Made by a program: the position numbers and the translations under genes
Notes under the pieces: generated by a model
Told to the model about the DNA's origin: nothing
Database searches by the model: none
What the model saw: only the letters and a program-made list of their open reading frames with translations
IMG/VR virus record: IMGVR_UViG_3300030107_004408
Span: 1 to 58,737 of that record
Direction: 5' to 3' (one strand)
Origin: a virus
Taxonomy: Duplodnaviria; Caudoviricetes
DNA length: 58,737 nucleotides
Shown here: positions 1 to 57,317 of the stretch, piece after piece
Numbering within the stretch: the stretch's first letter is position 1
Layout: each line of letters starts with the position of its first letter

Positions 1-98
1 GCTGGACTCGTGGGTGGTCAGTACTTAAGCGTCTACTGGATAACGGACGTGGTGACTACGCTTCGCTAGTTGCTCCCAAGCTTGCGCAGAACATGCCT
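1..98. repeat. Terminal direct overlap with 58639-58736 (circular contig)
   Basis: The 98 nt are identical at both ends and the reading frame continues across the join. Confidence 0.95.
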
Positions 99-173
99 CC
101 CAAGGCTAAGCTTCCTGCTGCTGCAGCTAGCTTCGTTCCTCTGCTTCAGGACGCTGGGCTTCTTAGCAACTGA
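1..173 (+). CDS. C-terminal end of the MoxR-like AAA+ ATPase that starts at 57645
   Basis: Frame of tgg at 3-5 reads WTRGWSVLKRLLDNG...LLQDAGLLSN, TGA 171-173; in frame with ATG 57645 through the overlap. Confidence 0.85.
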   Translation, partial: WTRGWSVLKRLLDNGRGDYASLVAPKLAQNMPPKAKLPAAAASFVPLLQDAGLLSN

Positions 174-186
174 TACATAACTAGGT

Positions 187-252
187 CACACCGGCTTACG
201 TCGGTGTGCCTTATGGTACGTGTCAGTACCACACAACAACGGAGATAACATG
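187..252 (+). promoter_or_regulatory. Two-hairpin + CAA-repeat + SD leader element, copy 1
   Basis: CACACCGGC-ttac-GTCGGTGTG; TGGTAC-gtgtca-GTACCA; cacaacaacGGAGataacATG. Confidence 0.7.
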
Positions 253-1260
253 ACTTTAGAAAACATTCTTAAGGATGTGCCCAAGAAGGATTGGGTGTAT
301 CACTTGGGGCATGATGGTCCAAGGGAAGCTTTCAATGGCCATCCCGGTCGCTTTCCTTGCGCGCCTACTTCGACGTGCTTCAAGCCTGTCACAGTTAAGG
401 TTAACTGCCAACGCGCTAGGCATACGATTACTGTTTATCCTAGTGGTAAGATCGAGCTGCATGATCACAGTCGTAAGACTCGCAAGCAGGACGAATCGTT
501 TGTGTTCTTTGGCGGTAGATGTAGATGCTCTGAGATAAGAGACTCTTGGCATGAGCTTATGCGTAACCCTGACTCTAGTTCTTATAAGGCCTTACCTACT
601 AAGCTTGTGCAGTTTGCCCGTGCCCGTAGGGATTTGGTCAAGCGTCGGCGTACCTACCAGCGTAGATGTAGCCAGATCTCTATGCGCATAGCTACTCAGG
701 GTTGTGAGCCTTTGCAAAACAGGCTTACTATTTTCTCGTCTAAGCATTACTCGGCAGCGCTTACTCGTTGTACTACTAAGGAGTTGCGTCAGAGTTACAT
801 GGTTAGAAGCCCTGCTTGGCGTAAGAAGATGCATGCCTATCGTACTGCTCGCTGGCGTAAGTCTTCGCGGAAGCTTGGCTTAGACGAAGCTTGGCTAAAG
901 CTACCTGATGACTGGTTCGGTAGTAATGTTTGGCGTAGCGAGCATGGTGCAGTTCACGCTGTGCCTAAGGCTGTCCCCTGCTTTGTGGAGTACGCCCACT
1001 ACGTTGAAGATTCGGACGAAGTACCAGTAGTACTGCACTGTTTCGGTTGGGACGCTTTGAGCACTAAGCGCCAGGACTTTAGTCCTTGGAGCATGGAGCC
1101 ACGCAGCCTTACCGGATGGGCCTACAGGGGCGAGCTTGGCCGTTGGTTAGTTAAGATTAACCCCTATGAACTGGACGCTATTGAGAAGTTAGGCCTTAGC
1201 GCTTTCGCATCTGAGCAACACCTGCTCTGGTACATGCGCCGCTTAGGTCGATCTAAGTGA
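250..1260 (+). CDS. Hypothetical early protein (basic, Cys/His-rich N-terminus)
   Basis: Long ORF; start moved to ATG 250 behind the conserved GGAG leader. Confidence 0.75.
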   Translation: MTLENILKDVPKKDWVYHLGHDGPREAFNGHPGRFPCAPTSTCFKPVTVKVNCQRARHTITVYPSGKIELHDHSRKTRKQDESFVFFGGRCRCSEIRDSWHELMRNPDSSSYKALPTKLVQFARARRDLVKRRRTYQRRCSQISMRIATQGCEPLQNRLTIFSSKHYSAALTRCTTKELRQSYMVRSPAWRKKMHAYRTARWRKSSRKLGLDEAWLKLPDDWFGSNVWRSEHGAVHAVPKAVPCFVEYAHYVEDSDEVPVVLHCFGWDALSTKRQDFSPWSMEPRSLTGWAYRGELGRWLVKINPYELDAIEKLGLSAFASEQHLLWYMRRLGRSK

Positions 1261-1268
1261 TAACCTCG

Positions 1269-1338
1269 AACGCATGCCTTAACGGGCATGCGTTACTGGA
1301 TGTTACTTATGGCATCATTGACAACGGAGATAACAATG
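1269..1338 (+). promoter_or_regulatory. Two-hairpin leader element, copy 2
   Basis: AACGCATGCC-ttaacg-GGCATGCGTT; GATGTTA-ctta-TGGCATC; acaacGGAGataacaATG. Confidence 0.75.
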
Positions 1339-2616
1339 TCTAAACAACTAGTAGCAGCAAGGCTGGCATCGTTCCATCGATTCCCGTACTTCTCTACTGT
1401 TATTAGCAGCATGGCTCTTACCGAGTCTACTGCTTGCCCTACTATGGGTATCGATGAGCGCTGTCGGTTGTACTACAACCCAAAGTTCATTGCTCCCCTT
1501 AGCCTGGACAATCTAGTAGGCCTACTCGTACACGAGTCATTGCACATCTACCTTAGGCATGCCCAACGGTGTAAGGCTATCGGTGCTGATCATAAGCTGT
1601 GGAACATTGCCGCAGACTTAGAGATCAATGACGATCCTGACCTAGTAGGCATACTGCCCGATGGTGGTGTGCATCCAGATACATTCGGTTTCCCTACTGG
1701 CCTAACGGCTGAGCAGTACTACCGAATGCTGTTGGATAACGCTAAGGAACAGCCCCCGCCACAGCCCGGTAGCGATTCTGATGATAGTGGCGACGGCGAT
1801 AGCAGTAGTAGCGATAGCGCTGATGATGGTAGTTCTGGTGACGGTAATAACGACACCGAATCTAACCAACCGCAAGTAGGCTCCGGCCGCTGTGGTTCTG
1901 GTGCTACGGGTGAGCCCGAAGGGTACGAGGCTCCTGCTGACTCTGAAGATAACCCAGGTTTAGATCCCACAGAGACTGAGCTTATTCGTAATAAGCAAGC
2001 GCAGGAAATCCTGTCTAGTCCTAACCAGGGTTCTATTCCGGGTAACATTCGTAGGTATAGCGCTGAGCTTACTGCCCCACCTCGTGTGTCGGTAGATGAG
2101 CTGTTTAAGCAAGCGGTGCGTAAGGCTTGGGCTTCTGCCCGTGGCTGTACTGACTTTACTTATCGGCGTAGATCTAGGCGTGACTTGGGTAACGGTATCA
2201 TCATGCCTGGCATGCATGAGCCTTTGCCCAATGTGTCTATTATTATAGATACGTCCGGTAGCATGGGTACTGCTGACATCGATACGGGTACGCACTTGAT
2301 TAAGCGTATCCTTCAGAAGTCCTTTCAGTTGGAGCCTACCGTTCTAGTCTGCGATGCTTCAGTGCACGGTATCCAAAAGATTACCGACACTAAGCAGATC
2401 AAGCTTAGGGGCGGCGGTGGTACTGATATGCGTGTGGGTATTGATGCAGCTATGAAAGCTAAGCCAAGCCCAGATGTCCTTATCGTTATTACCGATGGCT
2501 ACACCCCATGGCCCAAGCGTCCTATTCGTGGCGTTAAGCCTGTGGTCTACCTCGTTGGCAGCTATACGACTAGGCGCGGTATACCTGATTGGATGCAGGT
2601 TATCGAAGCCGCTTAA
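1336..2616 (+). CDS. Putative HEXXH metallopeptidase + VWA domain protein (DUF2201-like)
   Basis: HESLH, WNIAADLEIND, acidic Ser/Asp linker, MIDAS motif DTSGS, GGGGTDM, ITDG. Confidence 0.85.
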   Translation: MSKQLVAARLASFHRFPYFSTVISSMALTESTACPTMGIDERCRLYYNPKFIAPLSLDNLVGLLVHESLHIYLRHAQRCKAIGADHKLWNIAADLEINDDPDLVGILPDGGVHPDTFGFPTGLTAEQYYRMLLDNAKEQPPPQPGSDSDDSGDGDSSSSDSADDGSSGDGNNDTESNQPQVGSGRCGSGATGEPEGYEAPADSEDNPGLDPTETELIRNKQAQEILSSPNQGSIPGNIRRYSAELTAPPRVSVDELFKQAVRKAWASARGCTDFTYRRRSRRDLGNGIIMPGMHEPLPNVSIIIDTSGSMGTADIDTGTHLIKRILQKSFQLEPTVLVCDASVHGIQKITDTKQIKLRGGGGTDMRVGIDAAMKAKPSPDVLIVITDGYTPWPKRPIRGVKPVVYLVGSYTTRRGIPDWMQVIEAA

Positions 2617-2624
2617 GCGTCCTT

Positions 2625-2700
2625 TAGGCTTACCACCTTAACGGGTGGTAGGTCTATGGATGCGCTTATGCATCACTAGACAACAACGGAGATAACAATG
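2625..2700 (+). promoter_or_regulatory. Two-hairpin leader element, copy 3
   Basis: TAGGCTTACCACC-ttaacg-GGTGGTAGGTCTA; GATGC-gcttat-GCATC; acaacaacGGAGataacaATG. Confidence 0.75.
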
Positions 2701-3567
2701 TCTAAAACTGAAATCCCTATTAGTGGTAACCTTGTCGGCTGGACTCTTAGCAACAACACTGACCGGACTAAGATTGAGGAGGCTTGGATTGCTGCTGGCT
2801 ACGGTAGGTTCGTACCTACAGCTAACAGTGAGAAGAGCGCTTTGCATGCTGCCCTTAAGCGTGTGTGGGGTGGTCCTCGCTGTCTGGTTAGGCCAGTTAG
2901 TGGTTCCACCTATGCGGTAGTGGCAGAGAAAGCCGGCGATGACTCGCTAGAGCATGATGTGTCCTTTATCGCTAAGGTACCTGACTCCGATAGCGTTATG
3001 ATCCGCTTCTATGATGAGCACAAGATCAGGGTGATCCCACCTAGAGCAGCGGAAGTACAAGCCGCCTTTATGGCAGAGCTTGATAAGCTGCCGTCTCCTA
3101 GGATGGCGCGTTCTCTTGTCAGTGTACTGGATAGCATGCACGCTATCCCGTTTAAGGCTGGCAGAGGTAATGGTGGTGTCTACTACCTACCTCAGGAGCA
3201 TTACGCTAAGTGGACTGAGCTTATGGACGCAGTGATTGCTGCTGACCCTGGTGGTACTAACTCTCACCATGAGATGGCTATCGCCATGAACGCTAAGACC
3301 TGCTCCACAGTGCTTGAGTCCGTTACGGCCACACTGCTTAAGGAGACTGAGGATATGTCTACTGATATTGCCGGTGACGGTAGTAATGGTGAGCTAGGTA
3401 AGCGTGCGCTTAAGTCTAAGCAGTCACGAGCTGATCACCTTCGTCAGCGTGTTAAGCGTTATGAAAGCTTGCTTAACACAAACCTCAGTGCCCTTAGTGC
3501 TCGCATTGAAGATGTGGACAGTGCCGCTGCCATGGCTACGCTGTCGCTGTTAGCTGCAGCCAAGTAG
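2698..3567 (+). CDS. DUF3150/DUF6744-like protein
   Basis: GNLVGWTL N-terminus, GGVYYLP motif, coiled-coil C-terminus; adjacent to AAA/VWA genes. Confidence 0.55.
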   Translation: MSKTEIPISGNLVGWTLSNNTDRTKIEEAWIAAGYGRFVPTANSEKSALHAALKRVWGGPRCLVRPVSGSTYAVVAEKAGDDSLEHDVSFIAKVPDSDSVMIRFYDEHKIRVIPPRAAEVQAAFMAELDKLPSPRMARSLVSVLDSMHAIPFKAGRGNGGVYYLPQEHYAKWTELMDAVIAADPGGTNSHHEMAIAMNAKTCSTVLESVTATLLKETEDMSTDIAGDGSNGELGKRALKSKQSRADHLRQRVKRYESLLNTNLSALSARIEDVDSAAAMATLSLLAAAK

Positions 3568-3581
3568 AGATAAACACCCCT

Positions 3582-3617
3582 AACCCCCGTTAGCTTAGCT
3601 GGCGGGGGTTTTCTTTT
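3582..3617 (+). terminator. Rho-independent terminator ending the early module
   Basis: AACCCCCGTTAG-cttag-CTGGCGGGGGTT followed by TTCTTTT. Confidence 0.85.
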
Positions 3618-3619
3618 GC

Positions 3620-4073
3620 CTTAAAATATTCAGAGCCTAAATGCCTAAGCTTAGCGCGTTAAATATGTTTCGCCGTAGGATAACGATATGCGTTTAACAT
3701 ATATTAAGGTTAAGGAATTTCGACTAAGGTTGTAGAAAAATAGATTTCTGGGACGCGTTCGATCAGCGGTTACGCCGATTTGCGCATTATATGGCAATAA
3801 TGTACTAATAACCTTATTCACCCTACGATTAGTCATTAGCCACCTGATGATAGTGACGGTTAAACCTATGTTTTCGTCGATGCAACATCATATGGGTTTT
3901 CTTGGCCGGTGTATCCTCTGAATAAAAAAAGAATAACCACGGGGGGGTGGTTGGTGGTAGGCGGGGCTGTGCAGTATATGGACCCACTGACTAGCAAGGT
4001 CGTTTGACGGGAATCAAACCTGCTCTTGTGTCGGTTGAACCTGCATTATCGTTAAATAGTTTAATACCCTGAA
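3620..4073. promoter_or_regulatory. AT-rich control region (promoters/operators, possible origin)
   Basis: Non-coding and AT-rich; shares motifs with 55970-56178; lies upstream of the replication genes. Confidence 0.5.
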
Positions 4074-4493
4074 ATGGCTGACGAGGTTGCTAGTACACCT
4101 ATGACAAGTCGTGACAGGACAAATCAGTGGCAATTGATACAATTAGCCATGGACAAAAATCAGCTAAACTCCCTGCTTCTTGTACTCTCAGACACTCTCG
4201 GCTGCTCAAAGTCGGAGGCATTGAAGTTCTCCCTTGAGTTCACGTTAAGTAAACTTGAAGCTGGTGCAGCCGAGGGGCTCACGTCTGTTCCTATCCTTGA
4301 CGCAGCCAGCAAGCTGGTGCTCGCCCAAGGGGGGTTCACAATGGACGAGCTACTCGACTACCTGTCTGAACGTATGCCCATCTTCGCACCGCATAAGACA
4401 AAAATATTCGCAGCCCGAGTGCTGAACGCATCGGGCTACGAAAGGAAGCAGTGCCGCAGGGGCAAAGAGAGGCCCCTACTATGGCAACGCTAG
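4074..4493 (+). CDS. Putative DNA-binding protein (RHH-like N-terminus, winged-helix-like C-terminus)
   Basis: IQLAMD...LSDTLGCSKSEALK pattern; C-terminal RVLNASGYERKQ...LW. Confidence 0.5.
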   Translation: MADEVASTPMTSRDRTNQWQLIQLAMDKNQLNSLLLVLSDTLGCSKSEALKFSLEFTLSKLEAGAAEGLTSVPILDAASKLVLAQGGFTMDELLDYLSERMPIFAPHKTKIFAARVLNASGYERKQCRRGKERPLLWQR

Positions 4494-4495
4494 TA

Positions 4496-5332
4496 TCAAC
4501 TGTCGGCGTAAGTGATTCCGTTGGAACTACCTGCTTTGGCAAAGCCGGTGACTGCCCACTGGGTGCTGCTGATGCAGGTTACTTCTACGAAGTCCCCAGC
4601 AACGGTGTCAGATCCAAACTTGATGATGTCGTTGCTATTGTTATCGGAAGCGGCACCATCATCGGAGTCGCTGGCTGCATGGCCACCTACGAAGAAGACG
4701 CTGCCATCTGTAGTGGCAGTCTTCACTTGGCAAATGGCAGTAGAGTAGGCACCAGTCTGGACGATCTTGAACGTCAGCCCAACTGCTGGCGCGGGGAGAG
4801 TAACGATGGCAGCGTTGGGAGCCATCAGTACAGTCTTACCACTGTCGGCAGCAGTCAACGTTGTCGTAGCACTCGTAGCCGCAGCCACGGTGGTGGCATT
4901 AGCGTGCGAACGCTGGGCCACACTGGCAGGAGCCAGAAGCACAGCACCAGTGGAAGCATGGTCAGACAAGACTGTACCGACAATGACGGGCGCAGTACCA
5001 GCGGTAGCACTCCAGCTACCAGCAGTGTCGGAAAGATACACAGGGCCGCCCGCTCCCTCAGAGGCAGAAGAGTCAACGGAAGTGATCAGCTTGTGGCTAA
5101 CTACCCGTACAGATGCTCCGGTTGCAGCAGCGTGGTCAGCTACGCCCATGACTCCTACATCATAGAGATCGACGTTGGCATCTGCCTTGCGGAACTTGAC
5201 TCGGTTCCCGTCATAGCCCGAGGCGATGACGATATCGTTTGCGGAAACTGCGCCGTCTGCGATTGCATTAAAAGATCCGTGGTAGCCTGTTCCATGCTGT
5301 GGTTCCAGGTACTTTGCTTTGATATGTGGCAT
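4496..5332 (-). CDS. Structural-type protein (decoration/head-fibre-like), paralogue of 21198-21602
   Basis: AAGGAG SD before ATG 5332; Ala/Gly/Ser/Thr-rich; cement-like N-domain. Confidence 0.65.
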   Translation of the reverse strand: MPHIKAKYLEPQHGTGYHGSFNAIADGAVSANDIVIASGYDGNRVKFRKADANVDLYDVGVMGVADHAAATGASVRVVSHKLITSVDSSASEGAGGPVYLSDTAGSWSATAGTAPVIVGTVLSDHASTGAVLLAPASVAQRSHANATTVAAATSATTTLTAADSGKTVLMAPNAAIVTLPAPAVGLTFKIVQTGAYSTAICQVKTATTDGSVFFVGGHAASDSDDGAASDNNSNDIIKFGSDTVAGDFVEVTCISSTQWAVTGFAKAGSSNGITYADS

Positions 5333-5442
5333 CGTGAACTCCTTCACTCTTATGGGATTATGCCCGCCCGGTCTGAGCCGGGTATGCCGGGGCAGCCCTA
5401 TTCTATTCCCCTAACCCTACCCCAGTCAACAACGGAGGCAGC

Positions 5443-7641
5443 ATGAATTTACCTTGGCAACTTAGCTTCTTTAAGGATGGCGTACTCAGCGTTAATCCCA
5501 AAGACACACTCATTCGGGATGTAACTAAAGTCGAGAGGCTATTTTGTAATCCACCCACACGACCAGACAACTTCCCTAAGAAGAAACTACCATGCTGGTC
5601 ACCCACAGTTTACCCTGCTGGGGCATTGCGGGGTAACAAAGCGGTCACAGGAATCACAGCATTAGTCTACGATTATGATAGTGCGGTGCTTACCGCAGAA
5701 GATATGCTGGAGCACTTGGGTGAGACTGGTCTGGAGTTCATCTTCCATACCACCTGGAGCCACTGCCCAGAGAAGGCGCGGTATCGTATTGTTATCTTCC
5801 CCGAGCGTACCCTCACTCCTGATGAGTACCCAGATGCATGGGAGAATGGCCTCGCTATTATTGGCGTGCCCGCAGGTGTGGACAGGCAGTCGAGAAATAT
5901 CTCCCGCCACTATATCTTACCGTGTGAGCGCCCCGGCACTGAGTACATTGGAGAATATTCAACGGGACGGGAAGTGACCGTAAGCGAATTAACAAAAAAG
6001 GTGAGCACAGCTAACAAACCCCTGAGCAACACCGGGCTGACCCTGGAAACCAAACTCCAGTTGCTCGACCACACATGGATTACCATGGGTGAGTTGGTTG
6101 CCCGAGGTGAGGGTAAGCATAAATGTACCTGCCCTTTTGAAGAGGGCGCCTCGATGGGCAGCGCTTTCTTGCGGGTACTAAAGGACGGGCGTGCATTCAT
6201 TCAGTGCACTAGTGATAGTCACAGCCATGAGGGTTCCCAGTTCTGGTTGGCCAAGAAGAAGAAGAGCAAAGGGTTCGCCGCACGCAGTGTTGCAGACCGC
6301 GAGCAGAAGCTGGGTGAAGTCCCAGAGAAGCTGCTTAAGTATGCGGAAAACAATCTGGCATACAATGCACTGCAAGGTATCTTCTATAGATATTCGGATG
6401 GCTCTTGGTGCATTGACATGCCAATGCGTAAAGAGTCCTTGGCCGATCACTTACTTGGGTTGATGCCCAAGGGGTGTGACCGCTCGCATGTCATCGCGCT
6501 GATTGATCACATTCTATCCCGGCAGGTCTACGGGTTTGATTGCGCTGCTACTCGCAATCGAATCATCTTGGACCGGGGTGCGAAGAAACTTAACCTTTAT
6601 GCGTGGCCGGAAATGGAGTCCGAAGCAGGCAAGTGGGGCAGGATCAGTGACATGCTTGATGTACTCTGCGACCACGATGCCCAGGCTCGTGAGTGGTTAC
6701 TTAACTGGAGCGCTGCTCTGGTCCAGTACCCCGAGCGTAGGAGCATGACTGCTGTGTTGGTTCTGTCGCCCCAACAGGGCGTTGGTAAATCTATGTACGG
6801 ACGTATTCTCAGCGAGATGATCGGCCGACGCAACTGTGTTGTTGTCAGTAACCGTGCGCTGCGGGACTCGTTCAACTCTCACTATGTCACCAGTCTCTTG
6901 GTCCTGGCCGATGAGGTCGGTATGGAGCGTAATGCGTCTGACGTTATTGCCGAACTTAAAGCGGCTGTAACTGATGACATGGTTCACTGCTCTACTCCGT
7001 ATGCTGCACGAACCACGGTTACTAACCGCATGTCTTGGTGGCTGACGAGTAATAGACGACGACCGTTCCTCGTGGAACAGGGCGACCGAAGATTTACTGT
7101 ACTCTCTCCCGCGCTGGCAGATGAGCAGTACCGGCAGGCGCTGCGAGATTGTTTCGACAGTGAATCCTCTTCATATTCTGATTCTTTCTACGCAGAGATC
7201 TGCGCATACCGCCATGCGTTGGAAAATACTGTGGTCAACTGGAACCTGATTGCCAGCCCCTACAACTCTACTGCTAAGAAGGAACTGCAAGCGGCTTCCC
7301 GTAGTTCCATTGAAGCTTTCACTGTGGAGCTGCTGGAGTCTGGGCCTGCTGTTGTGCTCACTGATTACCCGCCTTCACCTACCTACATCCGTGTGTCCGA
7401 TAGTATGCTGTCCCGTGCTGTACCGTGTGAAACTATATACGGTGCCTATCGAGAATGGTGTACGCGTAATGGTAGGTCGGACTTCCGTAGTGAGACACTA
7501 CTGCGACTGCAAGTGCGAGACATGGGTAACGCTAAGATTAAGAAGGCACGCATCGGCGGTCGGAAGATTGATGTTTATGTTGGACTACCAGTGCCCAAGG
7601 GTGAGAATGTCGTAGACCTTCCGTCTACTGTGGAGGGCTGA
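5443..7641 (+). CDS. Primase-polymerase (AEP-type) fused to a P-loop helicase (D5/DUF5906-like)
   Basis: YDYD, HTTWSH, RYRIV; Walker A QQGVGKS; Walker B LVLADE; TSN; DRRF. Confidence 0.85.
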   Translation: MNLPWQLSFFKDGVLSVNPKDTLIRDVTKVERLFCNPPTRPDNFPKKKLPCWSPTVYPAGALRGNKAVTGITALVYDYDSAVLTAEDMLEHLGETGLEFIFHTTWSHCPEKARYRIVIFPERTLTPDEYPDAWENGLAIIGVPAGVDRQSRNISRHYILPCERPGTEYIGEYSTGREVTVSELTKKVSTANKPLSNTGLTLETKLQLLDHTWITMGELVARGEGKHKCTCPFEEGASMGSAFLRVLKDGRAFIQCTSDSHSHEGSQFWLAKKKKSKGFAARSVADREQKLGEVPEKLLKYAENNLAYNALQGIFYRYSDGSWCIDMPMRKESLADHLLGLMPKGCDRSHVIALIDHILSRQVYGFDCAATRNRIILDRGAKKLNLYAWPEMESEAGKWGRISDMLDVLCDHDAQAREWLLNWSAALVQYPERRSMTAVLVLSPQQGVGKSMYGRILSEMIGRRNCVVVSNRALRDSFNSHYVTSLLVLADEVGMERNASDVIAELKAAVTDDMVHCSTPYAARTTVTNRMSWWLTSNRRRPFLVEQGDRRFTVLSPALADEQYRQALRDCFDSESSSYSDSFYAEICAYRHALENTVVNWNLIASPYNSTAKKELQAASRSSIEAFTVELLESGPAVVLTDYPPSPTYIRVSDSMLSRAVPCETIYGAYREWCTRNGRSDFRSETLLRLQVRDMGNAKIKKARIGGRKIDVYVGLPVPKGENVVDLPSTVEG

Positions 7642-9221
7642 TGGATTTCATTGACGTTAGCCTTACCATGTTCTCGGTGCCCGACTGGGCACACGAGGTG
7701 CCTGGGGTGTGGCCCTTCAAGAAAGGAAACGGCGCACGTGTGCCGATGAATGTCACCGGCCTGCTCGATCGTTCTCTTCCCTATGAAGATGGCGCAGACA
7801 TGTTGGCGGAAATATTGGATGGGCCCATGTACCACGAGTGGCTCGGCGAATATCTGATGCCACACCAGAAGAATATTTTAACCCGTGCCTTGCCGCGTAA
7901 GGGTTTTAATGCTTGGGCACCACCTGGGTCTGGTAAGACCTTATGCGGCTGTGTGTGGCTGGGCGCTGCGGGCCGAGGCCCAAAGGTGGTGATCACTAAG
8001 GCTGCGGCACGCGGCACATGGAAGGAGGAGATACGCAAGTACACTAACTATGTGCCTGTAGTTCTGAGTGGTCAGAAGTCACGCACCATCCCAGGGGAAC
8101 CAAACTGCGTCTACATCATCGGCTGGGAGACTCTGATCTGGTGGAAGGATGCCCTGGTTGAGCTTGGTATTCACTCCCTTGTTATGGATGAGATCCACTG
8201 GGCTAAGAACCCCAAGCGTGTGCGCGGTGTAGTCCAGAAAGACGGAACAACTGAGTGGGTTCCGCTGAAGAATGCATCGGCCGCAGCAGTGGAGGTTGCA
8301 AGGTCAGCTACCCGCAGGTTTGGTTTAACTGCGACACCCATACCCAACCGCCCAAAGGATCTATGGGCGCAGTTGGATTTAGTTGAGCCCTGGCAGTGGG
8401 GTACGTTCCACCAGTTTGGGGTACGCTATTGCGATGGGTTCAAGGATACTTATGGCTGGAAGTACGATGGGTTGAGTGGCCAGATAGAGTTGGGTGCAAG
8501 GCTTAAATGGTCTAAGCACAAGACTTCGCAGCGTGCCATTTCATCCACCCTACCTGCAAAGCGTAGGCAGATTGTGTATCTAGACAAGGATGAGCAGAAC
8601 GCTCCGTCTGGGTTTAAGAACGACATCCGTAGGGCAGGGAAGACTGGTGATAGGGAAGCTATGTTTGAGGTACTGCTCCAAGAAGCTGCCTCAAGGAAGA
8701 GGAAGTATGTAGTTAGCAGGGCAGTGGAAGCTGCTGCTTCAGGGCAGAAGGTCACCATCTTCACTGGACGAAGGAAGGATTGCGACAAGATCGGTGCGGC
8801 TGTTGCCAAGGCAACGAGTGTTCCGGTTTGGTGTGCCCATGGCGGCACATCTGCTGACCAGCGTGACGCCATACGTAAAGAGTATATGGAATCCAAGTCT
8901 GGGATACTCGTGGGTACCGGAGCTGCGTGGGGAGAAAGCGTCAACTTGCAGGACACCGACCTCGCGTTGTTCGTTATGCTCCCCTGGACCCCTCGTGAAG
9001 TTAGGCAGTGGGAAGGTAGATTCTCTAGGCTGGGACAGGCCAGACCAGTGTTGATTTCTTACGTCATAGCTAAGAACACAGTGGACGAGCATGTGTCTGA
9101 CTTGTTGATAGATAAACTACCAGCAGTAGGTAGCGTGGCAGAGGACGAGATACTAATGGAAGTGGAGGAAGCTTTCACTGAAACGCAGGAAGATTTACTT
9201 TCCAGAATAGCGGAAGTGTGA
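7641..9221 (+). CDS. SNF2-like SF2 helicase
   Basis: PGSGKT, DEIH, LTATP, GESVNLQ, QWEGRFSR. Confidence 0.85.
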   Translation: MDFIDVSLTMFSVPDWAHEVPGVWPFKKGNGARVPMNVTGLLDRSLPYEDGADMLAEILDGPMYHEWLGEYLMPHQKNILTRALPRKGFNAWAPPGSGKTLCGCVWLGAAGRGPKVVITKAAARGTWKEEIRKYTNYVPVVLSGQKSRTIPGEPNCVYIIGWETLIWWKDALVELGIHSLVMDEIHWAKNPKRVRGVVQKDGTTEWVPLKNASAAAVEVARSATRRFGLTATPIPNRPKDLWAQLDLVEPWQWGTFHQFGVRYCDGFKDTYGWKYDGLSGQIELGARLKWSKHKTSQRAISSTLPAKRRQIVYLDKDEQNAPSGFKNDIRRAGKTGDREAMFEVLLQEAASRKRKYVVSRAVEAAASGQKVTIFTGRRKDCDKIGAAVAKATSVPVWCAHGGTSADQRDAIRKEYMESKSGILVGTGAAWGESVNLQDTDLALFVMLPWTPREVRQWEGRFSRLGQARPVLISYVIAKNTVDEHVSDLLIDKLPAVGSVAEDEILMEVEEAFTETQEDLLSRIAEV

Positions 9222-12032: not shown

Positions 12033-14540
12033 ATGAAAGCGTTGTGCCATCCGTGCCCACTGGGCAACTACTGGAAGGGTAAAGGCGAGTTCGCACCAGT
12101 TGTCGGAGAAGGGCCAACCTCCCCAAAGATAGTAATCCTCGGCGGGACTCCCGGTGCCCATGAGATGGTAGAGGGTCGACCGTTCGTCGGCCCTTCCGGC
12201 AGAGAGCTACAGGATGCCTTGGACCGGTTGGAGATCGGACGCTCTGACCTGCTGATTACAAACGTGGTGGCATGCCGGCCACCAGATGGCAAGCTTAGTA
12301 ACTATATGCTTAAGCTTTCTCGGCGCAACAAGAAGCTGGTTAGGGATAAGAAGCTAGCTGAACCGTCGCCGCATGAATGCTGTCGGCCCAGGTTGTTGGA
12401 CGAGCTTAGCTCTGCGGAGAAGATTATCTGCTTGGGCAGCACAGCAGCCGCAGCCATCCGAGGTGGAAACCCATCAATCATGGGCATACGAGGTGCGTGC
12501 GAGGAGCTGGAGTTCCAAGGCCGTAAGGTTAAGGTTGCTTACACAGTGCACCCAGATTTCGTGCAGACAGTGCCCAAGTGGCGGCCAGTATTCCAACGGG
12601 ACTTGGCAAAAGCCTTCAGGTTTTTTTCCAACGCGCTAACCTGGTCCGACCCAGACATTTATTTTGTGACAAATGGTGACCAGCTCCGGCGTTATTTTAA
12701 TCGGCTAATGGTGTCTGGCAAACCCATCGCGTATGACGTTGAGACTGACGCTAAGAACCCACTAGCGGCAGAGCTTAGATGCTTAGCGTTTGCGAATGAC
12801 GAGATCAGTGTTGTCGTGCCGCTGTTATCTATCGATGGAACAACACGCTTCTTCTCTGGGCAGGAGGAGCAGGATATATTGAAACAAGTTCAGGATTTTC
12901 TGAAGAAAGCACCGCTGGTTGGCCACAACGCAGGGCAGTATGACCGCTTAGTGTGCGAGCAAAAGCTAGGTGTAACGCCTAATCTCAGGGCAGATACACT
13001 CATCCTGCACCTGCTTACTGACAATGAGATGCCCCACAATCTGGGGTTTGTGACTAGTTTCTACACAGATTTCTCTGAAGCCTGGAAGGCAGACCATACT
13101 GCGGTTACTGCTCGGTCTGACGAAGAGCTACATACCTACTGCGCTAAGGATGCTTGCGCTACAGCGCACGTAAGTCGTACCTTAGCTGCCCATGTCAAGG
13201 AGCGTAACCAGTGGCACTTGCTGAGCACTGAGCACACGCTCCAACGTATCGGCTGCGGGATGCAGCGGCTGGGTCTGAAGGTTGATTTCGACAGAGTTAA
13301 TCAGCACGCGTCTGGGTTCGAGACTAGGCTTGCGGAAAACCGTAAGCGCTGCATGGAGATTGCACCTGACGGGTTCAACGCAAACAGCACGCTGCAGCTC
13401 CGCAGACTCATCTTTAATGAGTGGAACCTGCCTCCTGTTAAATACAACGAGAAGACAGGTGACCCGTCCACCGATGACGAGACGTTGAGAAAGCTCATCA
13501 CCAACTATGGGCTGGACGAAGAGAAGACTACATTTCTCCAGAGCGTTCGCCTCATCCGGCGCTACACGAAACTACTGAGTACTTACATCAACCCACTGCG
13601 CTCTGGGCTGGTGATGCCCGATGGGCGTGTCCACCCCGCCTACAACCGTTTACCTGCTACCGGTAGATACAGCAGCAGTGAGCCTAACGCTCAGAATATC
13701 CCGGCTTTCTTACGGGACATATTTGTGCCCGAGGAGGGGCACGTCTTTGTGGGCGCAGACTTCGATCAGCTAGAGCTACGTTTGATTGCGGAAGAAGCGA
13801 AAGCCATGCGCTTAGTCCAGGTAATCAACTCTGGGCTTGACCCGCACAACGAAACCATGGAAGCGGTTTACGGCAAGGGAATCTGGAAGCTGGATGGCGC
13901 ACCGGACGACCGCCGCAAGAAGGGCAAGGGTACGTTTAAGAAGACTCGCGGAATCACCAAGACCACTAGGTACGCTTGGCAATACGCGGCTGGCGTTCCG
14001 ACTGTACATGAAAAGGTCATATCAGTAGAGGATGATAGTGGCCAACTTATCTATGCTCACATGTCGCACAAGGATGTGCGGGACGTGATGAATGGCCTGA
14101 AGAAGGCTGACCCAGAGATACCAGCTTGGTGGAATGGTGTGCGGCACATTTACCGCAAGCAAGGTTTTGTGGCGGATTCTGTCTGGGGGCGTCGTAGGGA
14201 TTTCCGTGGCGAAGAAAAGCTTAACGAGATGGTGAACCACCCAATCCAGGCCGGGGGCGCAGCTATCGTACACGAGTCAATGCTTGAGCTGGTAACTGGA
14301 AAGCCAGGTAATGCTTCTGAGTCATGTCTCACAGACTTCACCCCTATACCTTTCGATTTTATTAACAGAACAGGTCTTGTCAATCAATGTCACGACTCCT
14401 TACTGTTTGAGGTTCCAGAGGATATAGGAGAAGAAGTGGCTGTTCGGGTTGAACAGGCCATGACCCGTCGTCGTCGTAAGGGAGCCCTGCTCTCATACAC
14501 AGCAGAAGCAGCTATCGCCCAAAACTGGTTGGAGGCATGA
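12033..14540 (+). CDS. polA: Family A DNA polymerase with N-terminal family-4 UDG domain and 3'-5' exonuclease
   Basis: UDG: CxxC, GRPFVG, TNVVACRPP, HP; exonuclease: YDVET, GHN..YD, YCAKD; polymerase: TGRYSS, ADFDQLELR, RxxxKxxxY, HDS. Confidence 0.93.
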   Translation: MKALCHPCPLGNYWKGKGEFAPVVGEGPTSPKIVILGGTPGAHEMVEGRPFVGPSGRELQDALDRLEIGRSDLLITNVVACRPPDGKLSNYMLKLSRRNKKLVRDKKLAEPSPHECCRPRLLDELSSAEKIICLGSTAAAAIRGGNPSIMGIRGACEELEFQGRKVKVAYTVHPDFVQTVPKWRPVFQRDLAKAFRFFSNALTWSDPDIYFVTNGDQLRRYFNRLMVSGKPIAYDVETDAKNPLAAELRCLAFANDEISVVVPLLSIDGTTRFFSGQEEQDILKQVQDFLKKAPLVGHNAGQYDRLVCEQKLGVTPNLRADTLILHLLTDNEMPHNLGFVTSFYTDFSEAWKADHTAVTARSDEELHTYCAKDACATAHVSRTLAAHVKERNQWHLLSTEHTLQRIGCGMQRLGLKVDFDRVNQHASGFETRLAENRKRCMEIAPDGFNANSTLQLRRLIFNEWNLPPVKYNEKTGDPSTDDETLRKLITNYGLDEEKTTFLQSVRLIRRYTKLLSTYINPLRSGLVMPDGRVHPAYNRLPATGRYSSSEPNAQNIPAFLRDIFVPEEGHVFVGADFDQLELRLIAEEAKAMRLVQVINSGLDPHNETMEAVYGKGIWKLDGAPDDRRKKGKGTFKKTRGITKTTRYAWQYAAGVPTVHEKVISVEDDSGQLIYAHMSHKDVRDVMNGLKKADPEIPAWWNGVRHIYRKQGFVADSVWGRRRDFRGEEKLNEMVNHPIQAGGAAIVHESMLELVTGKPGNASESCLTDFTPIPFDFINRTGLVNQCHDSLLFEVPEDIGEEVAVRVEQAMTRRRRKGALLSYTAEAAIAQNWLEA

Positions 14541-15007
14541 TGAGCAACAGAGTTAGAATATTCTTGGCGCACTCAATTCACGAATCGCCGATGAAAATAA
14601 AAGACATCGCCAAGGCTCTCCGGGATTCTTTTGAAAAGAAATACCTGAAAGCTACTGGCAACAGCCCAGCTATTTCGGTCACGTCTGGGCGGGCAGACCA
14701 CAAGATACATTGGAAGGGTTCTTGGGAAGACTGGGAGTTGTCCGTATTGAACCGCAAGAACGTGACCACCGGCAGCTTGGTTTACGACATGTTCGTGGCC
14801 ACTACTAAGAGCTGCGGCAAGTCCACTGCTACGATTTTGCGGGAAGCTGTACGTACAAACCGTCCGGTATTCCTGTGGGATGAGACTGTGGGTTGCAAGA
14901 AAGTAATCGGCATAGAAAGCCGAGATGAAGAGGATTGGGCAAATGGTTTCAGCGTGGTGCTGGAGCCAGAGCAGCTCTCTCTATTCAACACAACGGAGAC
15001 AACATGA
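14537..15007 (+). CDS. Hypothetical protein, possible NDT/TIR-like Rossmann fold
   Basis: IFLAHS first strand; YDMFVA; GKST...EA...RPVFLW. Confidence 0.45.
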   Translation: MMSNRVRIFLAHSIHESPMKIKDIAKALRDSFEKKYLKATGNSPAISVTSGRADHKIHWKGSWEDWELSVLNRKNVTTGSLVYDMFVATTKSCGKSTATILREAVRTNRPVFLWDETVGCKKVIGIESRDEEDWANGFSVVLEPEQLSLFNTTETT

Positions 15008-19564: not shown

Positions 19565-20809
19565 CTACGAGAAAACTTGCATGTGAAGAATAGTGTTGGC
19601 GTCATCAGCGGCAGCGCCCGAGGAAGCTGCTGCCCAGGCAATGTCGGTCCCGTCTGATTTGAGGACGTAGGTGTTAGACCCGATCCCCAGAGCCGCTGGA
19701 TCTCCGCTGGCGTTTCCAACGATGATGCTCCCCCGAGTGAGGCCCGCCATCTTTGCGAGGGTCACCTGATTGTCAGCGATGTGAGCGGTATCAATCGACC
19801 CATCTACATAGTGCTCGGAGTTGATCGAGTCATCTGCGATGTTATCTCCGTCTACCGCATCGCCAGCAAGCATAGCGTGCTCGACCGCACCGGTCTGGAT
19901 GGTCATGGCACCAGCGGACAGGCCGATATCGCCGCTTACGGTTGTCCATGTTGGATCTCCGTTTGCGTCAGCGACAAGTAGCTTACCGTTTGCGCCCGCA
20001 GCCAGGGCTGAAGGATTGCCAGAAGAATCTCCGACGATAAACTTACCCCGAGCCAACCCAGCCATCTTAGCCAGAGTAATTTGGTCATCAGCAATATGAG
20101 CCGTGTCGATGGAGCCGTCTACATAGTGTTCGGAGTTGATTGAGTCGTCGGCAATCTTGTCGCCGTTGATCGCATCCCCGGCAATATAGGCCTGAGCGAT
20201 TGCGGTCCCTTGCCAGACGCCCGTACCGATCGTGCCCACAGCAGTGATCTGCGTCTGGCTGGCGTCTACTCCGATTACAGAACTAGAAGCTGTGAGTCCT
20301 GTACCCGCGAAGAGAGTAGCAAGTGAGGCAACAGTAGTAAGCTGTTCAGTAGATCCGTCTGAATCTATAGTAGCAAGCTTGTCCCCATTAGCAGGAGTAA
20401 CATCGCTAAGCTCAGACAGGTCAAGTGTGAGAGTTAGCGCTCCAGTGGTCCCTCCACCGGAGAGCCCGACGCCAGCCGTCACTCCAGTGATATCTCCGAC
20501 GAAAGCCATAGCGGTGCCAGAAGTAATCTGGATGTCGTTACCGGCATCAGTCGTAAAGTAAAGCTCGTTAGGCGTAGCCGTCTTTACCCAGAGTTGGCCA
20601 TAAGCTGCGGTATCTCCATCAGCAGCGGCCTGCTCCTTCATGGTAACAGCGCCTTCGACAGTCAGTCGAGTCTTAGGCGCTGCAGTTCCAATGCCGATGC
20701 GGTTGTTGCTGGCATCTGCTGTCAGCGTAGTGCCGTCAACCTCAATATCAGAGAGAGAGCCGACCTGACCTTTGGTCCCGCCTGGGAATTTCGGACTACG
20801 TACGCCCAT
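19565..20809 (-). CDS. Tail fibre-like protein with an internal repeat
   Basis: NNRIGIGT, GDITGVTAG, two copies of IADDSINSEHYVDGSIDTAHIAD. Confidence 0.75.
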   Translation of the reverse strand: MGVRSPKFPGGTKGQVGSLSDIEVDGTTLTADASNNRIGIGTAAPKTRLTVEGAVTMKEQAAADGDTAAYGQLWVKTATPNELYFTTDAGNDIQITSGTAMAFVGDITGVTAGVGLSGGGTTGALTLTLDLSELSDVTPANGDKLATIDSDGSTEQLTTVASLATLFAGTGLTASSSVIGVDASQTQITAVGTIGTGVWQGTAIAQAYIAGDAINGDKIADDSINSEHYVDGSIDTAHIADDQITLAKMAGLARGKFIVGDSSGNPSALAAGANGKLLVADANGDPTWTTVSGDIGLSAGAMTIQTGAVEHAMLAGDAVDGDNIADDSINSEHYVDGSIDTAHIADNQVTLAKMAGLTRGSIIVGNASGDPAALGIGSNTYVLKSDGTDIAWAAASSGAAADDANTILHMQVFS

Positions 20810-21655: not shown

Positions 21656-24600
21656 TTAAAGCTCATCGTCGTCATAGATACGCGGTATTGGTAGGTCTTT
21701 GGAAGCTTCTATTTCTTGCTCTGGGGTTCGCTCTACGATGGTACCTGGGCTTGGCAGATACGCATCTAAGTTCTCTTCTGCAAGTGAGCCTCTTGCTGCT
21801 TCGCCAGATAGTTCGCCAAGTTCGGTCACTGCTTTTCTACCACGGTACTGTATGACTTGGCCGCGATCATCTAGATCCCACACATCTCCCATTTCAAAGG
21901 CTTTAGAAGCCTCGTAAGGGTACCACTTAAACCCTGAGTAGTTCTGAAGTGCTCTCCAACCTGCAGACATGAGGCTTTTCTGCGAAGCGTCACCAGGCGT
22001 TCGTGGAGGTCCGATTTGATTCCAGGCCACTCCGAGGTCACCTTCTGCCTTTTGGTAGGCTTCCGCTAGGTCGTTGTATCTTGGTGCATAGGGGTTCTGA
22101 TAGTAGATATTGTTTAAGAACCCAGAAACTTCTACGGATACCCAAGGCACCATGGTTTGCATAAAGAGCCAAGTCCCTCTGTGCATTTGGAAGCGACCTT
22201 CGTACTCACCTGCACCCGCATCGATCATAAACTGGGGCGACTTACCACGTTGGGTAAGCTGAGTGCCGAATGCTGAATCCCACTTCTGCATTATATTATG
22301 CTCAGCTTCATTTACGTTTATGTATTCGCCTTTCTCATACCCACCGGTATCGACTCCAGCATCCAGCAAAAAGCTTTCTAGGAATTCCTTGTAACGGGGG
22401 AAGAGCATGTTGAGTGCTGGCTCAAAAATGAAAGATTCCCAGTCACCGGGTGTAACTGTACCCCAAGGTGTTCGTCCCATGGTGCCCCCAGGGGACATGG
22501 GGCGATCCGGCTGAACACCATCGTAACGGTGTGCTAGCGCTGCACCCGTGCCCAACATCCAGCTTGCACCTATTTCGCCGATGTCCGTAATTGTAAGAGG
22601 CGGAAGCATCATTGCCTCATACTGGTACGGCTTGCCCCTTGAATGTACCCAGAAATCTGGGTCAGGAGAAGCCTGGTGCCCGATCAGTGCTCTACCTAAC
22701 ATCCAGTCTGGGCGTAGGTGGCGTTCCATCTCATCCAACCACTGCTGTTCGGATTGGATTTCACCCTCAACGTGCGGGTCTATGATGCCATCGTAAATTC
22801 TATCCCTGAAGTTGAGCTGGCTGCGGATTCTGTTGAGGGCAGTCCTACCAGTAAAGCTATCCATGATTGCTTTATTAGGCTTAGTTAATGGCTCGGCAAC
22901 TCTCCTGCCCATTTGCTTGAATGCCAGTCGCCAGAACCGCCAGAATGGCATCACCTTGCACAGTGTCGCAACTTCGGCTTTGGTAATTCCGTGCTTCCAG
23001 TCGTACAGAGATTCCCTGACTGCCCGCACCGCTTCTTTCTGTGTGAAACCTCTTCGCACGCGAAGCTCCATATACAGATTTCCGCGCATACGTGTTTGCA
23101 GGTGCTGGGCAAACCAGCGAATGTCATCGGACCATCTACCGACAGCGTGCCACGGTGCGTTCTTAGTGACATCTGTCAGGTAATTCAGTAGTTCCTCGTT
23201 TACCTGCGTATCAAGTACCGATTCGTGCAGCTCTCTACGCAATTGGCGAAAGTTTATTACCTCACCGTGTGCAGTCCTCATCACACCGTTGTCGCCGCGC
23301 CAGATCTTGTTTGCCCAGGTGTTGAATACAGCAGAGCTTGGAGAAGCCATGATGTGCATGGGAGCTTGTCGTCCCTTGCCTTTTCTGGACCTGAACACAG
23401 CGTCGGTCACTTCATCCATGCTTTTGCCCAGGCGTTCGCTCCACCAGGGTATGCCCGACAGGGTGTTGAATGTGACCCTTGTTCCGATCTCATAGCCATG
23501 GCCGAAGACCATCTGGCTCCAGTCTCCCCAAAGGTTGGTATTCACGTACTGGGGTCTGGGTATGACAGTGCCGGTAATGACACTTTGTTTCCATAGCGTG
23601 TTGAAAGTTGACATTGCGCCGAGTTGCTGCTCGGCGCCCTTTTCTGCTGATTTTTGGTACAGCCGTCCAATCTCTTTGCCCTGCACGTTTAGGCTGTCTT
23701 CAACTGCTTTGAGTACGGACTGGGGCATGAACAGGGCGCGGCCATCTGAGTCCGTCGCCACTTTGTGCATGTAATGGTAACGTTTGGCGTTTTCTGCTGT
23801 CCGGTAGTAAGAAGTGGTCACCGGCATACCCATCTTATTAAGGACGCCATAGCCTGCAATTAAGTCCGCCTCGCTTAGCGTTGCGTATGCACCATCCCAA
23901 ATCTTATTGGCCGCTGCTGCTTCTTTTGTAGTAACTGTTCCCAGTATTCGCTTTGCAGTTAACTCCCACATATGCTGCTTAAGGGCACCTGCCGTAATGG
24001 CCATTACACCACTAGCGGTAGCTCTAGTCACGTCCCGATCTACGTCAGCGTGAGCTGCGGCGGTTGTGCCATCTTCAAGAGTCTTACGGGAACTGACTCG
24101 TGTGGCGTTTCTAAGCCTGTTTTCTGCGTACTCGTAAGCAAGCTTTGAAGTTGGCAATTCGCCTTTCTGCATTAGCTTTGCAGTATCTTCTAGGATCTTA
24201 TATGCGTCAGCAGTAATGCTGGCCGCAATATCAGGAGTCAGGGCTGCACGGGAGCTAGACGGCCACCAGTGGGTTGCCCAGGAGATGAATGTGTTGCCCT
24301 CTGCCATGGGCGAATTCCATGTAGGACCGTAATTTTCATCGAGCCACTTTTCTTTCCAAGTAGGCTCTTTGCCTTTCATCTTCTCCAGTTTAGCGACTTC
24401 ACGTTCTACTTTTTTGCCACCCTCCTCTGCCTGCTTGGCCGTCATATTGCGTAGTGCTTTTTTTCTACCCGCAATTTGCTTGGAAATTTCTTCCTCACGG
24501 AGAATTAGGCGAAGTTCTTCTGTTTGCTTTTCCGTTATGGTGCCAGCGTTTCGTTTGGCTACGAGCTTGCGCCTTCTCTTGATCTCTGCCGCTTCTGCCC

Positions 24601-55698: not shown

Positions 55699-55755
55699 CA
55701 CTTTCTCCGTTGTGTGATGTGTGAAATCCGGGGCACCGTGCCCCGGTCGGTCTGT

Positions 55756-55798
55756 GTGACCTACGGTCACTATAGCGTGTTAGGGCTGCGGATTTCAA
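55756..55798 (-). promoter_or_regulatory. Leftward sigma70-like promoter + palindrome
   Basis: TTGAAA-18 nt-TATAGT overlapping GTGACC-gta-GGTCAC. Confidence 0.75.
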
Positions 55799-56140
55799 GG
55801 GTTAGGCATCATTGTTACATTTCGTTACATATGGCCTGACCTAGGCCTAGCGGTCTAGGCTTAGAGGCCTAGCCTTAGGGCGTTATCATAATAGTTGTAA
55901 TGTTAAGGTCGTTTCGAAAGGTCCGCAGCACAAGGCGGCCAGCGCCAGATCGGGCCGGGCCAGGCCTGGGATCAGCGGTCACGCCGGTTTAGTAGCTACG
56001 AGCAGCGGTTACGCCGCTTTGCTTCGCTGATGATAGTGAACTAAGAGCCTTAAGGTTTAATAGCCCAAGGTCTGGTGGCCTAACGTTAGATAAATCAGGC
56101 GCTCCACGTGGTGCACGCCCCAAAACCACCGTTACATTCA

Positions 56141-56178
56141 TTGACACGACCATATCCCAGGTTCAACCTGCATTATCG
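56141..56178 (+). promoter_or_regulatory. Possible promoter with a CAGGTT-c-AACCTG palindrome over the -10
   Basis: TTGACA-17 nt-CAACCT. Confidence 0.45.
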
Positions 56179-56199
56179 GAGGGTCAGTCATTTAGGGCT

Positions 56200-56241
56200 A
56201 TGAAACCCTAACCTAAACGGGCTAAGATGACCGTAGGTCAT
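56200..56241 (+). promoter_or_regulatory. Rightward sigma70-like promoter + palindrome
   Basis: ATGAAA-17 nt-TAAGAT overlapping ATGACC-gta-GGTCAT. Confidence 0.7.
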
Positions 56242-56411
56242 CGTTGATGACTTGGCGGAGCTATGTCTAGCTCCTTTGCTCTTTGGCATGGGCTGTTAAG
56301 CCCTTATAACTGTAGCAATCTTGTCGTGAGACACGTTGCTACTAACTTGTTTATCTCTTCGTTGGGGGGAGGTTGCATAGGCTTAGGCTTATGTAGCCTC
56401 CCCCACCTTTT
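56235..56411 (+). ncRNA. Candidate structured leader or small RNA
   Basis: Four hairpins; the last has an ~18 bp stem followed by a T-run. Confidence 0.4.
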
Positions 56412-56467
56412 CTACGTTGTAGTCCTGCTATCGGCTTTCGGTAGTAGGTCACACAATGGAGAAAACA

Positions 56468-57234: not shown

Positions 57235-57245
57235 ATATAACGACA

Positions 57246-57317
57246 GGATGCTTCAGCTTAACGGCTGAAGCGTCTCACGGTGTATTCAACACCATAACAA
57301 CAACGGAGAAAACAATG
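57246..57317 (+). promoter_or_regulatory. Two-hairpin leader element, copy 4
   Basis: GGATGCTTCAGC-ttaacg-GCTGAAGCGTCT; GGTGT-attca-ACACC; aacaacaacGGAGaaaacaATG. Confidence 0.75.

Follow-up and report, generated by a model that had tools for sequence, protein, structure and literature searches.

What is the role of a composite RNA element that recurs before one early gene after another in an uncultured marine phage, and which known class of signal does it most resemble? The question arises from IMG/VR record IMGVR_UViG_3300030107_004408 (Duplodnaviria; Caudoviricetes), whose 58,737 nucleotides (nt) form the window analyzed here. An earlier inspection of this window (the original prediction) had described five copies, here named c1 to c5, of a leader cassette with two covarying hairpins, P1 and P2, an unstructured CAA run and the motif ACGGAGAWAA before an ATG; it had considered a processing or stabilizing site analogous to the RNase III sites of phage T7, a loop-binding site for a regulatory factor, or a recombination unit comparable to the promoter-early stem-loop (PeSL) cassettes of T4-type phages. 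The copies constitute a real, selected, two-state mRNA junction module; by analogy, we tentatively read them as T7-type RNase III processing and stability sites fused to an open translation leader, with a probability that falls slightly short of even.

Most of the anatomy first described is borne out. All five copies (187-252, 1269-1338, 2625-2700, 57246-57317 and 57574-57647, c1 to c5 in this order) carry P1, P2, the CAA run and ACGGAGAWAA before the ATG; a sixth, orthologous copy is found on metagenome contig L102. P1 folds in five of the five window copies by RNAfold, and its measured length extends the predicted 9-13 base pairs (bp) to 9-14 bp: 9 bp in c1 (187-208), 10-11 bp in c2 (1269-1294), 13-14 bp in c3 (2625-2656), 12-13 bp in c4 (57246-57275) and 11-12 bp in c5 (57574-57601). 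The P1 loops, which had been described as kept, follow the pattern TTARCG in four of the five window copies (TTAACG in c2, c3 and c4; TTAGCG in c5), but c1 has TTAC and the L102 loop differs. Whole-segment z-scores range from -3.0 to -6.7 (RNAfold against dinucleotide shuffles). P2, with the predicted 5-7 bp, forms in six of six copies, including L102, when the upstream strand is blocked, and it outperforms mononucleotide shuffles in every copy (p 0.0025-0.033). A covariance model built from the copies recovers the five at 61-92 bits, and the next match in the window reaches 20 bits with filters off. Copies c4 and c5 are 79% identical over 66 nt; c2 and c3 share 24 identical bases (1321-1344 and 2683-2706) that reach into the first three codons (Met-Ser-Lys) of unrelated genes, a sequence identity that suggests gene conversion or selection on the start region.

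The ACGGAGAWAA leader motif occurs exactly six times in the window, in the five plus-strand copies and at one minus-strand site (19842); when a single mismatch was tolerated, 17 matches were found against an expectation of 5.8 +/- 2.6, and none of 100 shuffles reached 17. In the CAA-rich leader, GGAG is six to nine bases from the ATG. Only the five cassette genes have this leader in full, and partial likenesses are limited to 56468, 5443, 57509 and 15004; the mean unpaired probability from position -20 to +3 is 0.67 for these five genes, and a one-sided Mann-Whitney test against 42 other starts, with a mean of 0.47, gives p 0.006. The predicted lack of -35/-10 elements and of a U-tract also holds: a scan for sigma-70-type sites made no plus-strand promoter-like call at any copy, no plus-strand hairpin-plus-T-run call was made at any copy, and C/A-rich sequence follows the junctions.

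The two-hairpin description needs revision in one major respect: P1 and P2 both exist, but a third, outer helix was overlooked, and P2 is its less stable alternative. In every copy, the bases that follow P1 directly on its 3' side pair with the strand that carries the upstream stop codon, and P1 thereby becomes part of an interrupted hairpin that totals 22-24 bp. In this fold, termed state A, an outer helix of 6-9 bp is followed by a mismatch, a clamp of 2-3 bp (CG/CG, CC/GG or AGG/CCU), an internal loop, and P1 with its 9-14 bp; the interruption between clamp and P1 measures 3x3 or 3x2 in c2, c4, c5 and L102, 2x1 in c3, and is a 1-nt bulge in c1. State A is the minimum-energy fold of six of six segments from stop codon to ATG (the five copies and L102), and RNAalifold, without a supplied structure, returned the same consensus with 22 pairs, 13 of them with double changes. 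The total of 23, 22, 23, 24, 23 and 24 pairs in the six copies (c3 has two additional peripheral pairs) is nearly constant, although P1 and the outer helix each vary in length. In each of the six copies the outer duplex is better than mononucleotide shuffles (p 0.0115-0.042). The 3' strand of the outer helix consists of the 5' arm and loop of P2, and the two helices are therefore mutually exclusive; energetically, state A is favored over state B, in which P2 forms, by 3.6-10.6 kcal/mol. In all five window copies, the 5' strand of the outer helix contains the upstream stop codon; the Shine-Dalgarno (SD) sequence and the ATG are open in both states.

The position of the copies becomes clear when the window is closed upon itself. 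Its first 98 nt (1-98) are repeated at 58639-58736, and this terminal overlap indicates that the record is a circularly permuted whole genome; the last base, 58737, differs from base 99. IMG/VR rates the record of 58,737 nt as 100% complete, yet lists it as linear. Owing to the circular permutation, c1 to c5 are five consecutive junctions of one plus-strand gene block, with 75-82 nt from stop codon to ATG: genes for proteins of 178 and 80 amino acids (aa), c4, a gene for a 64-aa protein, a 17-codon open reading frame (ORF), c5, a MoxR-type AAA ATPase gene, c1, an orphan gene for a 336-aa protein, c2, a gene for a DUF2201 metallopeptidase/von Willebrand factor A (VWA) protein, c3, a DUF6744 gene, and finally a canonical intrinsic terminator (3582-3610, plus strand) with a 13-bp G+C-rich stem and a T run that closes the block.

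All five junctions are on the plus strand. Junction c4 (57230-57317; 91.8 bits to the covariance model) precedes the 64-aa gene (ATG 57315); its outer helix (57230-57238/57282-57290) holds the stop codon UGA of the 80-aa gene (57232-57234) and is followed by the clamp 57241-57242/57278-57279 and P1, with the alternative P2 at 57279-57293. Junction c5 (57559-57647; 88.7 bits) precedes the ATPase gene (ATG 57645), with outer helix 57559-57567/57608-57616, clamp 57569-57570/57605-57606 and alternative P2 57606-57620; here the enclosed stop UGA (57560-57562) belongs to the 17-codon ORF (57509-57562, plus strand), whose ATG overlaps the stop codon of the 64-aa gene (TGATG) behind a strong ACAACGGAGG-type SD. 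From these sequence features the ORF is presumably translated, and its sole purpose may be to bring ribosomes to c5. Junction c1 (169-252; 69.8 bits) precedes the orphan gene (ATG 250) and combines the outer helix 169-176/220-227, which holds the ATPase stop UGA (171-173), with the short helices 180-182/215-217 and 183-185/209-211; its alternative P2 is at 214-231. Junction c2 (1254-1338; 60.9 bits) precedes the DUF2201 metallopeptidase/VWA gene (ATG 1336), with outer helix 1254-1262/1301-1309 around the stop UGA 1258-1260, clamp 1264-1265/1298-1299 and alternative P2 1299-1316. Junction c3 (2611-2700; 73.6 bits) precedes the DUF6744 gene (ATG 2698), with outer helix 2614-2620/2662-2668 around the stop UAA 2614-2616, clamp 2621-2622/2658-2659 and alternative P2 2659-2674.

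Shuffles and compensatory changes support both states, in agreement with the proposal of a covarying, selected RNA structure. In an alignment of six rows (the five copies and L102), 84.3% of the cells were paired, compared to 35-43% when the partners were slid by 1-3 columns, and 15 of 24 pairs had changed on both sides. None of 500 shuffles reached the observed pairing, either of two double-change measures, or the covariation score; on the last of the five measures, the count of further pair types, 17 of 500 shuffles did so. MAFFT placed c1 and c3 two columns off register in the outer helix, which lowered the counts rather than raising them; it failed to register the P2 arms, and P2 was therefore judged copy by copy.

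The orthologous comparison comes from the ATPase gene. Among the relatives of its product one has 73% identity, followed by others at 41% and 37%; the gene for the closest relative lies on L102, a 1332-nt metagenome contig, and the 119 nt upstream of it include a full junction (26-120; 79.2 bits) orthologous to c5. Relative to c5, P1 has double changes at two pairs (T-A to C-G) and a switch to or from G.U at two others; double changes also affect two pairs of the outer helix and one pair of P2 (A-U to G-C). The base of P2 that changed in L102 is also part of the outer helix, and its partner in either helix has changed with it; a single base moving together with both partners is as predicted by selection on both states. 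The apical loop of P1 in L102 has eight unpaired bases, or four after extra pairs, and lacks TTARCG; the last 23 bases upstream of this junction are unlike the window. Junction variants in contigs of four other DNA runs include two informative ones among the differences listed: G222A turns a U.G wobble in the c1 outer helix into U-A and thus strengthens it, at a site that also lies in the P2 loop, and A2641G, found in two runs, turns the c3 loop into the c5 form.

Among the known systems, the junctions appear most to resemble the RNase III cutting sites between the early genes of phage T7 (R0.3, R0.5, R1, R1.1 and R1.3). Like these, they are intercistronic and repeated before successive early genes; the expected products would likewise be an upstream message that ends in a hairpin and a downstream message that starts just before its ribosome site. 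The two kinds of site share the form of an irregular hairpin with an internal loop and a length of approximately two helical turns, as far as the geometry is described in passages of PMC1540722 and PMC3867540. Unlike the T7 sites, the junctions add a mutually exclusive P2 conserved by covariation, enclose the upstream stop codon in the 5' strand of the lower helix, and are fused to a fixed CAA-rich leader; the likeness is one of geometry, with no claim of sequence likeness, and the window phage, in which no T7-like polymerase was found, is unrelated to T7 by the proteins scanned.

This resemblance leads to the following model. Each spacer would be an mRNA junction within a single polycistronic transcript that the host RNA polymerase would synthesize. 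State A is read as the nuclease target because its length and interruptions are right in every copy and because it is placed like the T7 R sites; this constant interrupted helix makes the processing or stabilizing site the best fit of the three functions originally proposed. A double-helical target of approximately two helical turns is present in six of six copies, and every copy has an internal loop or bulge, the putative target site. According to passages of PMC1540722 and PMC3867540, Escherichia coli RNase III substrates typically span two helical turns, which may be supplied by coaxial short helices, and with an internal loop only one strand is cleaved, which leaves a protective hairpin at the 3' end; for the rnc mRNA, a passage of PMC3867540 describes how RNase III creates an unstructured 5'-monophosphate end that attracts RNase E. 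By analogy, host RNase III would cut state A at or near the internal loop, as in the T7 early R sites. The upstream message would then end in P1, a 3' hairpin that would block 3' exonucleases, whereas the new downstream 5' end would refold into state B, where P2 would serve as a 5'-proximal hairpin shielding the 5'-monophosphate end, and the unstructured CAA-rich leader behind P2 would remain an open landing site for ribosomes.

Parts of this model have separate parallels. Intercistronic stabilizer hairpins include the repetitive extragenic palindromic (REP) elements. In selective RNA processing and stabilization, such hairpins can shield the upstream message and set differing levels for the genes of an operon, as outlined in passages of PMC10667835; the junctions are similarly stable, lie between cistrons, and could confer the same upstream protection and different gene levels, but the stabilizer hairpins are not fused to a standard leader and are not described, in these passages, with a conserved alternative 5' hairpin. 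Were the RNA cut at the internal loop, the new 5' end would fall only a few bases from P2, although the position of this end in the junctions is deduced from the model. In this location P2 would be comparable to 5'-terminal stem-loops, which reportedly protect mRNA from RNase E, as Emory, Bouvet and Belasco and also Bouvet and Belasco are said to have found in 1992.

A more elaborate version, in which the junction acts as a translation-gated processing switch and also allows unrelated genes, for instance the orphan gene flanked by c1 and c2, to insert with ready-made expression signals, is distinctly unlikely. In this version, ribosomes terminating upstream would melt the outer helix and P2 would hold the freed strand; the RNase III target would be missing and the message would stay joined. 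When upstream translation stops, the long helix would form and the junction would be cut. If so, the fate of each cistron would be tied to the translation of its neighbor.

Several considerations weigh against RNase III processing or reduce the force of the evidence. A single transcript for the block is assumed, the sequence does not demand cleavage, and such hairpins can stabilize or insulate cistrons uncut. The conserved CTTARCGG loop in four of the five window copies is not explained by an RNase III target. No RNA runs are listed among those that contain the phage. Within the covariation analysis, c4, c5 and L102 are related by descent and the copies are thus not independent; the structure was derived from the same sequences, which favors it over the slid controls; the shuffles preserve mononucleotide content only; and the orthologous comparison consists of one junction.

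The location of the stop codon suggests a rival explanation, a ribosome-operated two-state junction without obligatory cleavage. Here the terminating ribosome would melt the stop-bearing outer helix and P2 would capture the freed strand; the junction would work as an insulator, in which P1 blocks 3' exonucleases and the next ribosome site stays open whatever gene lies upstream. The enclosed stop codon in all five window copies, the 17-codon ORF that would carry ribosomes from the stop of the 64-aa gene to the c5 helix, the formation of P2 in all six copies once the upstream strand is blocked, the covariation in both states and the greater openness of the cassette ribosome sites relative to those of other genes are all consistent with this mechanism. 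Yet a switch that leaves SD and ATG open in both states has no obvious effect on translation, hairpins beginning at a stop codon are common in compact genomes, and the constant total helix length is not needed; the explanation is unlikely, while retaining an appreciable chance. Masking of the SD by the free 3' arm of P2 was rejected; by eye, c2, c3, c5 and L102 offer at most 3-4 complementary bases, and c1 and c4 do not share them. The apical loop points in a different direction, to P1 as the binding site of a phage or host protein that reads CTTARCGG and acts as translational repressor, antiterminator or stabilizer. The presence of CTTAACGG or CTTAGCGG on unrelated stems in four of the five window copies and the natural c3 variant with the c5 loop fit this possibility, but in L102 the stem was kept by compensatory changes while the loop changed, which speaks against a loop-reading protein and weakens this option of the original prediction; moreover, c1 has its own TTAC loop, P1 is approximately 40 nt away from the SD, the scanned proteins include no RNA-binding or antiterminator family, and there are no terminators between the copies for read-through. 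Loop binding thus has a slim chance, and antitermination sites of the nut/put type were rejected in view of five copies without intervening terminators and without an Rfam match.

Could the modules instead function mainly at the DNA level? As PeSL-type recombination boundaries, they would provide short homologies for swaps of early genes, a role compatible with any of the RNA readings. The orphan gene, whose product returns only itself in searches, sits between c1 and c2 inside an ATPase-DUF2201-DUF6744 module, whose first two members have relatives together in all 25 loci listed (DUF6744 in eight); the shared bases of c2 and c3, the similarity of c4 and c5, and the dissimilar 23 bases upstream of the L102 junction could likewise be traces of exchange. 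The junctions, like PeSLs, are composites of a repeated intergenic stem-loop, SD and start codon, placed in runs between small early genes, and they flank an orphan gene, an arrangement in which they may have a PeSL-like shuffling role. PeSLs, as portrayed in passages of PMC4122927, have a sigma-70-type -35/-10 promoter between the stem-loop and the SD, with the stem-loop read as a terminator. The junctions have no -35/-10 and are therefore not strict PeSLs, a defining feature on which the original proposal fails; they have no T run, their stems covary as RNA and are wholly different between most copies, which leaves homology over only approximately 20 nt, and covariation marks selection on RNA pairing that recombination alone does not require. 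Recombination as the chief function is improbable. The least probable of the explanations is that the modules are transcription signals, either T-less terminators or attenuators, or DNA-hairpin promoters for an unrecognized virion RNA polymerase. There is a hairpin before every gene, and the 3697-aa ORF (21656-32752, minus strand), of unknown function, recalls the giant virion RNA polymerase that N4-like phages carry. In N4 promoters the stem has 5-7 bp and the loop 3 nt, with conserved bases; in contrast, the P2 loops have 4-6 nt and are unconserved, and the P1 stems have 9-14 bp. The giant ORF has no Pfam, PHROG or PDB sequence match and none of the polymerase motifs searched for, and a promoter would leave the covarying outer helix across the stop codon unexplained. 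The junctions do not fit an N4-type promoter on these grounds, with the proviso that the undetected polymerase is a failure of detection, not proof of absence. An intrinsic terminator was also rejected, as the five junctions have neither a T run nor a terminator-like call; canonical terminators with a T run are called in this phage at 3582 and 56365, and further hairpins with a T run fold near 12000 and 16550, which sets the T-less junction hairpins apart as a separate class.

The module appears to have a narrow distribution; in the material searched, it was found only in the window phage and the L102 lineage. In agreement with the expectation that it is not a known family, the whole window gave no match at gathering scores in Rfam 15; in E-value mode, 1-3700 and 55700-58737 yielded three matches at chance level (E 0.19-0.9), far below gathering. 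Positions 1-8000 had no DNA similarity match in 50,697 phage records, an exact scan for the 21-nt leader and an IMG/VR scan with the DUF2201 protein returned nothing, and tblastn with the DNA polymerase found only matches of less than 60% identity (21-28% among the 15 matches listed). A gapped loop-to-leader pattern matched once in each of 99 stretches, approximately the number estimated by chance, and the module is absent from them; the covariance model found only weak leader-like matches there, nine at E <=1, the best with 23.7 bits on an unrelated 29-kb IMG/VR contig (L007). Several genes of this contig, on its minus strand at 7025, 9338, 2172, 4560 and 11628, are preceded by the AACGGAGAUAAC-type ribosome-site context of the window phage, without a hairpin module; the contig may share a host group with the phage. 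The 56 IMG/VR loci with ATPase relatives at 24-36% identity gave no covariance model match, and in the nearest of them (L103) the genes overlap without spacers. A tblastn comparison of 39 window proteins with 156 loci provided the 25 loci mentioned above; in distant phages the ATPase and DUF2201/VWA genes are neighbors or near-neighbors, and this pair, often with DUF6744, is a conserved module, here interrupted by the orphan gene (250-1260, plus strand), whose protein found only itself among 184-588-residue candidates in 5.8 billion clustered proteins. A literature search on conserved intergenic stem-loop leaders in phage early genes found nothing relevant.

Two leader-bearing relatives within the window, weaker than the five copies originally recognized, lie on the plus strand. 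The diverged relative at 56365-56470 precedes the block's first gene and comprises an 18-bp hairpin (loop TTAG), a T run and a 9-10-bp hairpin; in its leader, which ends in CAATGGAGAAAACA before ATG 56468, T replaces C. With 9-14 bits to the covariance model it is, by its sequence, not a full member of the module. The listed ORF start of this first gene, 56456, is probably wrong; 56468 agrees with the conserved leader. In the minimum-energy fold of 56340-56470 an upstream UCUCUU stretch pairs with the SD, a modeled structure that could make this leader an attenuator or hide its ribosome site. The weak relative at 14927-15007 (20.2 bits, E 0.003) lies within the 3' end of the upstream ORF; its 9-bp hairpin spans 14946-14968, and CAACACAACGGAGACAAC is the leader that precedes ATG 15004 (ATGA overlap).

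In the genome at large, plus-strand genes extend from approximately 56.4 kb through the record ends to approximately 17.5 kb; besides the ATPase, the DUF2201 metallopeptidase/VWA protein and the DUF6744 protein, they encode a primase-helicase, an SNF2 helicase, an exonuclease, a Sak4-like protein and a family A DNA polymerase (12033-14540, plus strand), in which an N-terminal domain of the uracil-DNA glycosylase (UDG) superfamily is fused to exonuclease and polymerase domains. The minus strand encodes terminase, portal, major head protein, an SU10-type adaptor, tail fibre-like proteins, and the adjoining ORFs of 3697 aa and 1373 aa (32745-36869, minus strand). The 1373-aa product has a peptidoglycan-binding domain, and both are probably ejected internal virion proteins. 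Residues 800-2800 of the 3697-aa product gave no Atlas hit above 0.82, and the search for polymerase motifs was by regular expressions. No RNA polymerase, RNase, RNA-binding or antiterminator family was recognized by Pfam and PHROGs on 13 and 26 proteins and by Pfam on 34 more. A 183-nt direct repeat of 70% identity (19687-19869 and 20002-20184) lies inside a tail fibre-like gene (19565-20809). The two large non-coding regions, 55771-56455 and 3611-4073, have motifs in common: a 24-nt repeat at 3760, 55969 and 55999, the sequence CTGATGATAGTGA, and GGTT[C/G]AACCTGCATTATCG, which occurs approximately 40 nt upstream of the gene at 4074 and approximately 300 nt upstream of the junction block's first gene; these are candidate promoters, origin or packaging site.

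The phage itself is present in marine metagenome runs. If the junctions are RNase III processing sites, an uncultured marine phage that lacks close relatives in culture and a recognized RNA polymerase of its own would use the logic of T7, in which an early transcript is converted into stable single-gene messages; its module would be more elaborate than that of T7, as one and the same sequence would serve as the lower half of a nuclease target and then as the 5' cap hairpin of the next message, with a standard open ribosome site behind it. The junction modules have natural analogs in synthetic biology, namely insulators and bicistronic designs.

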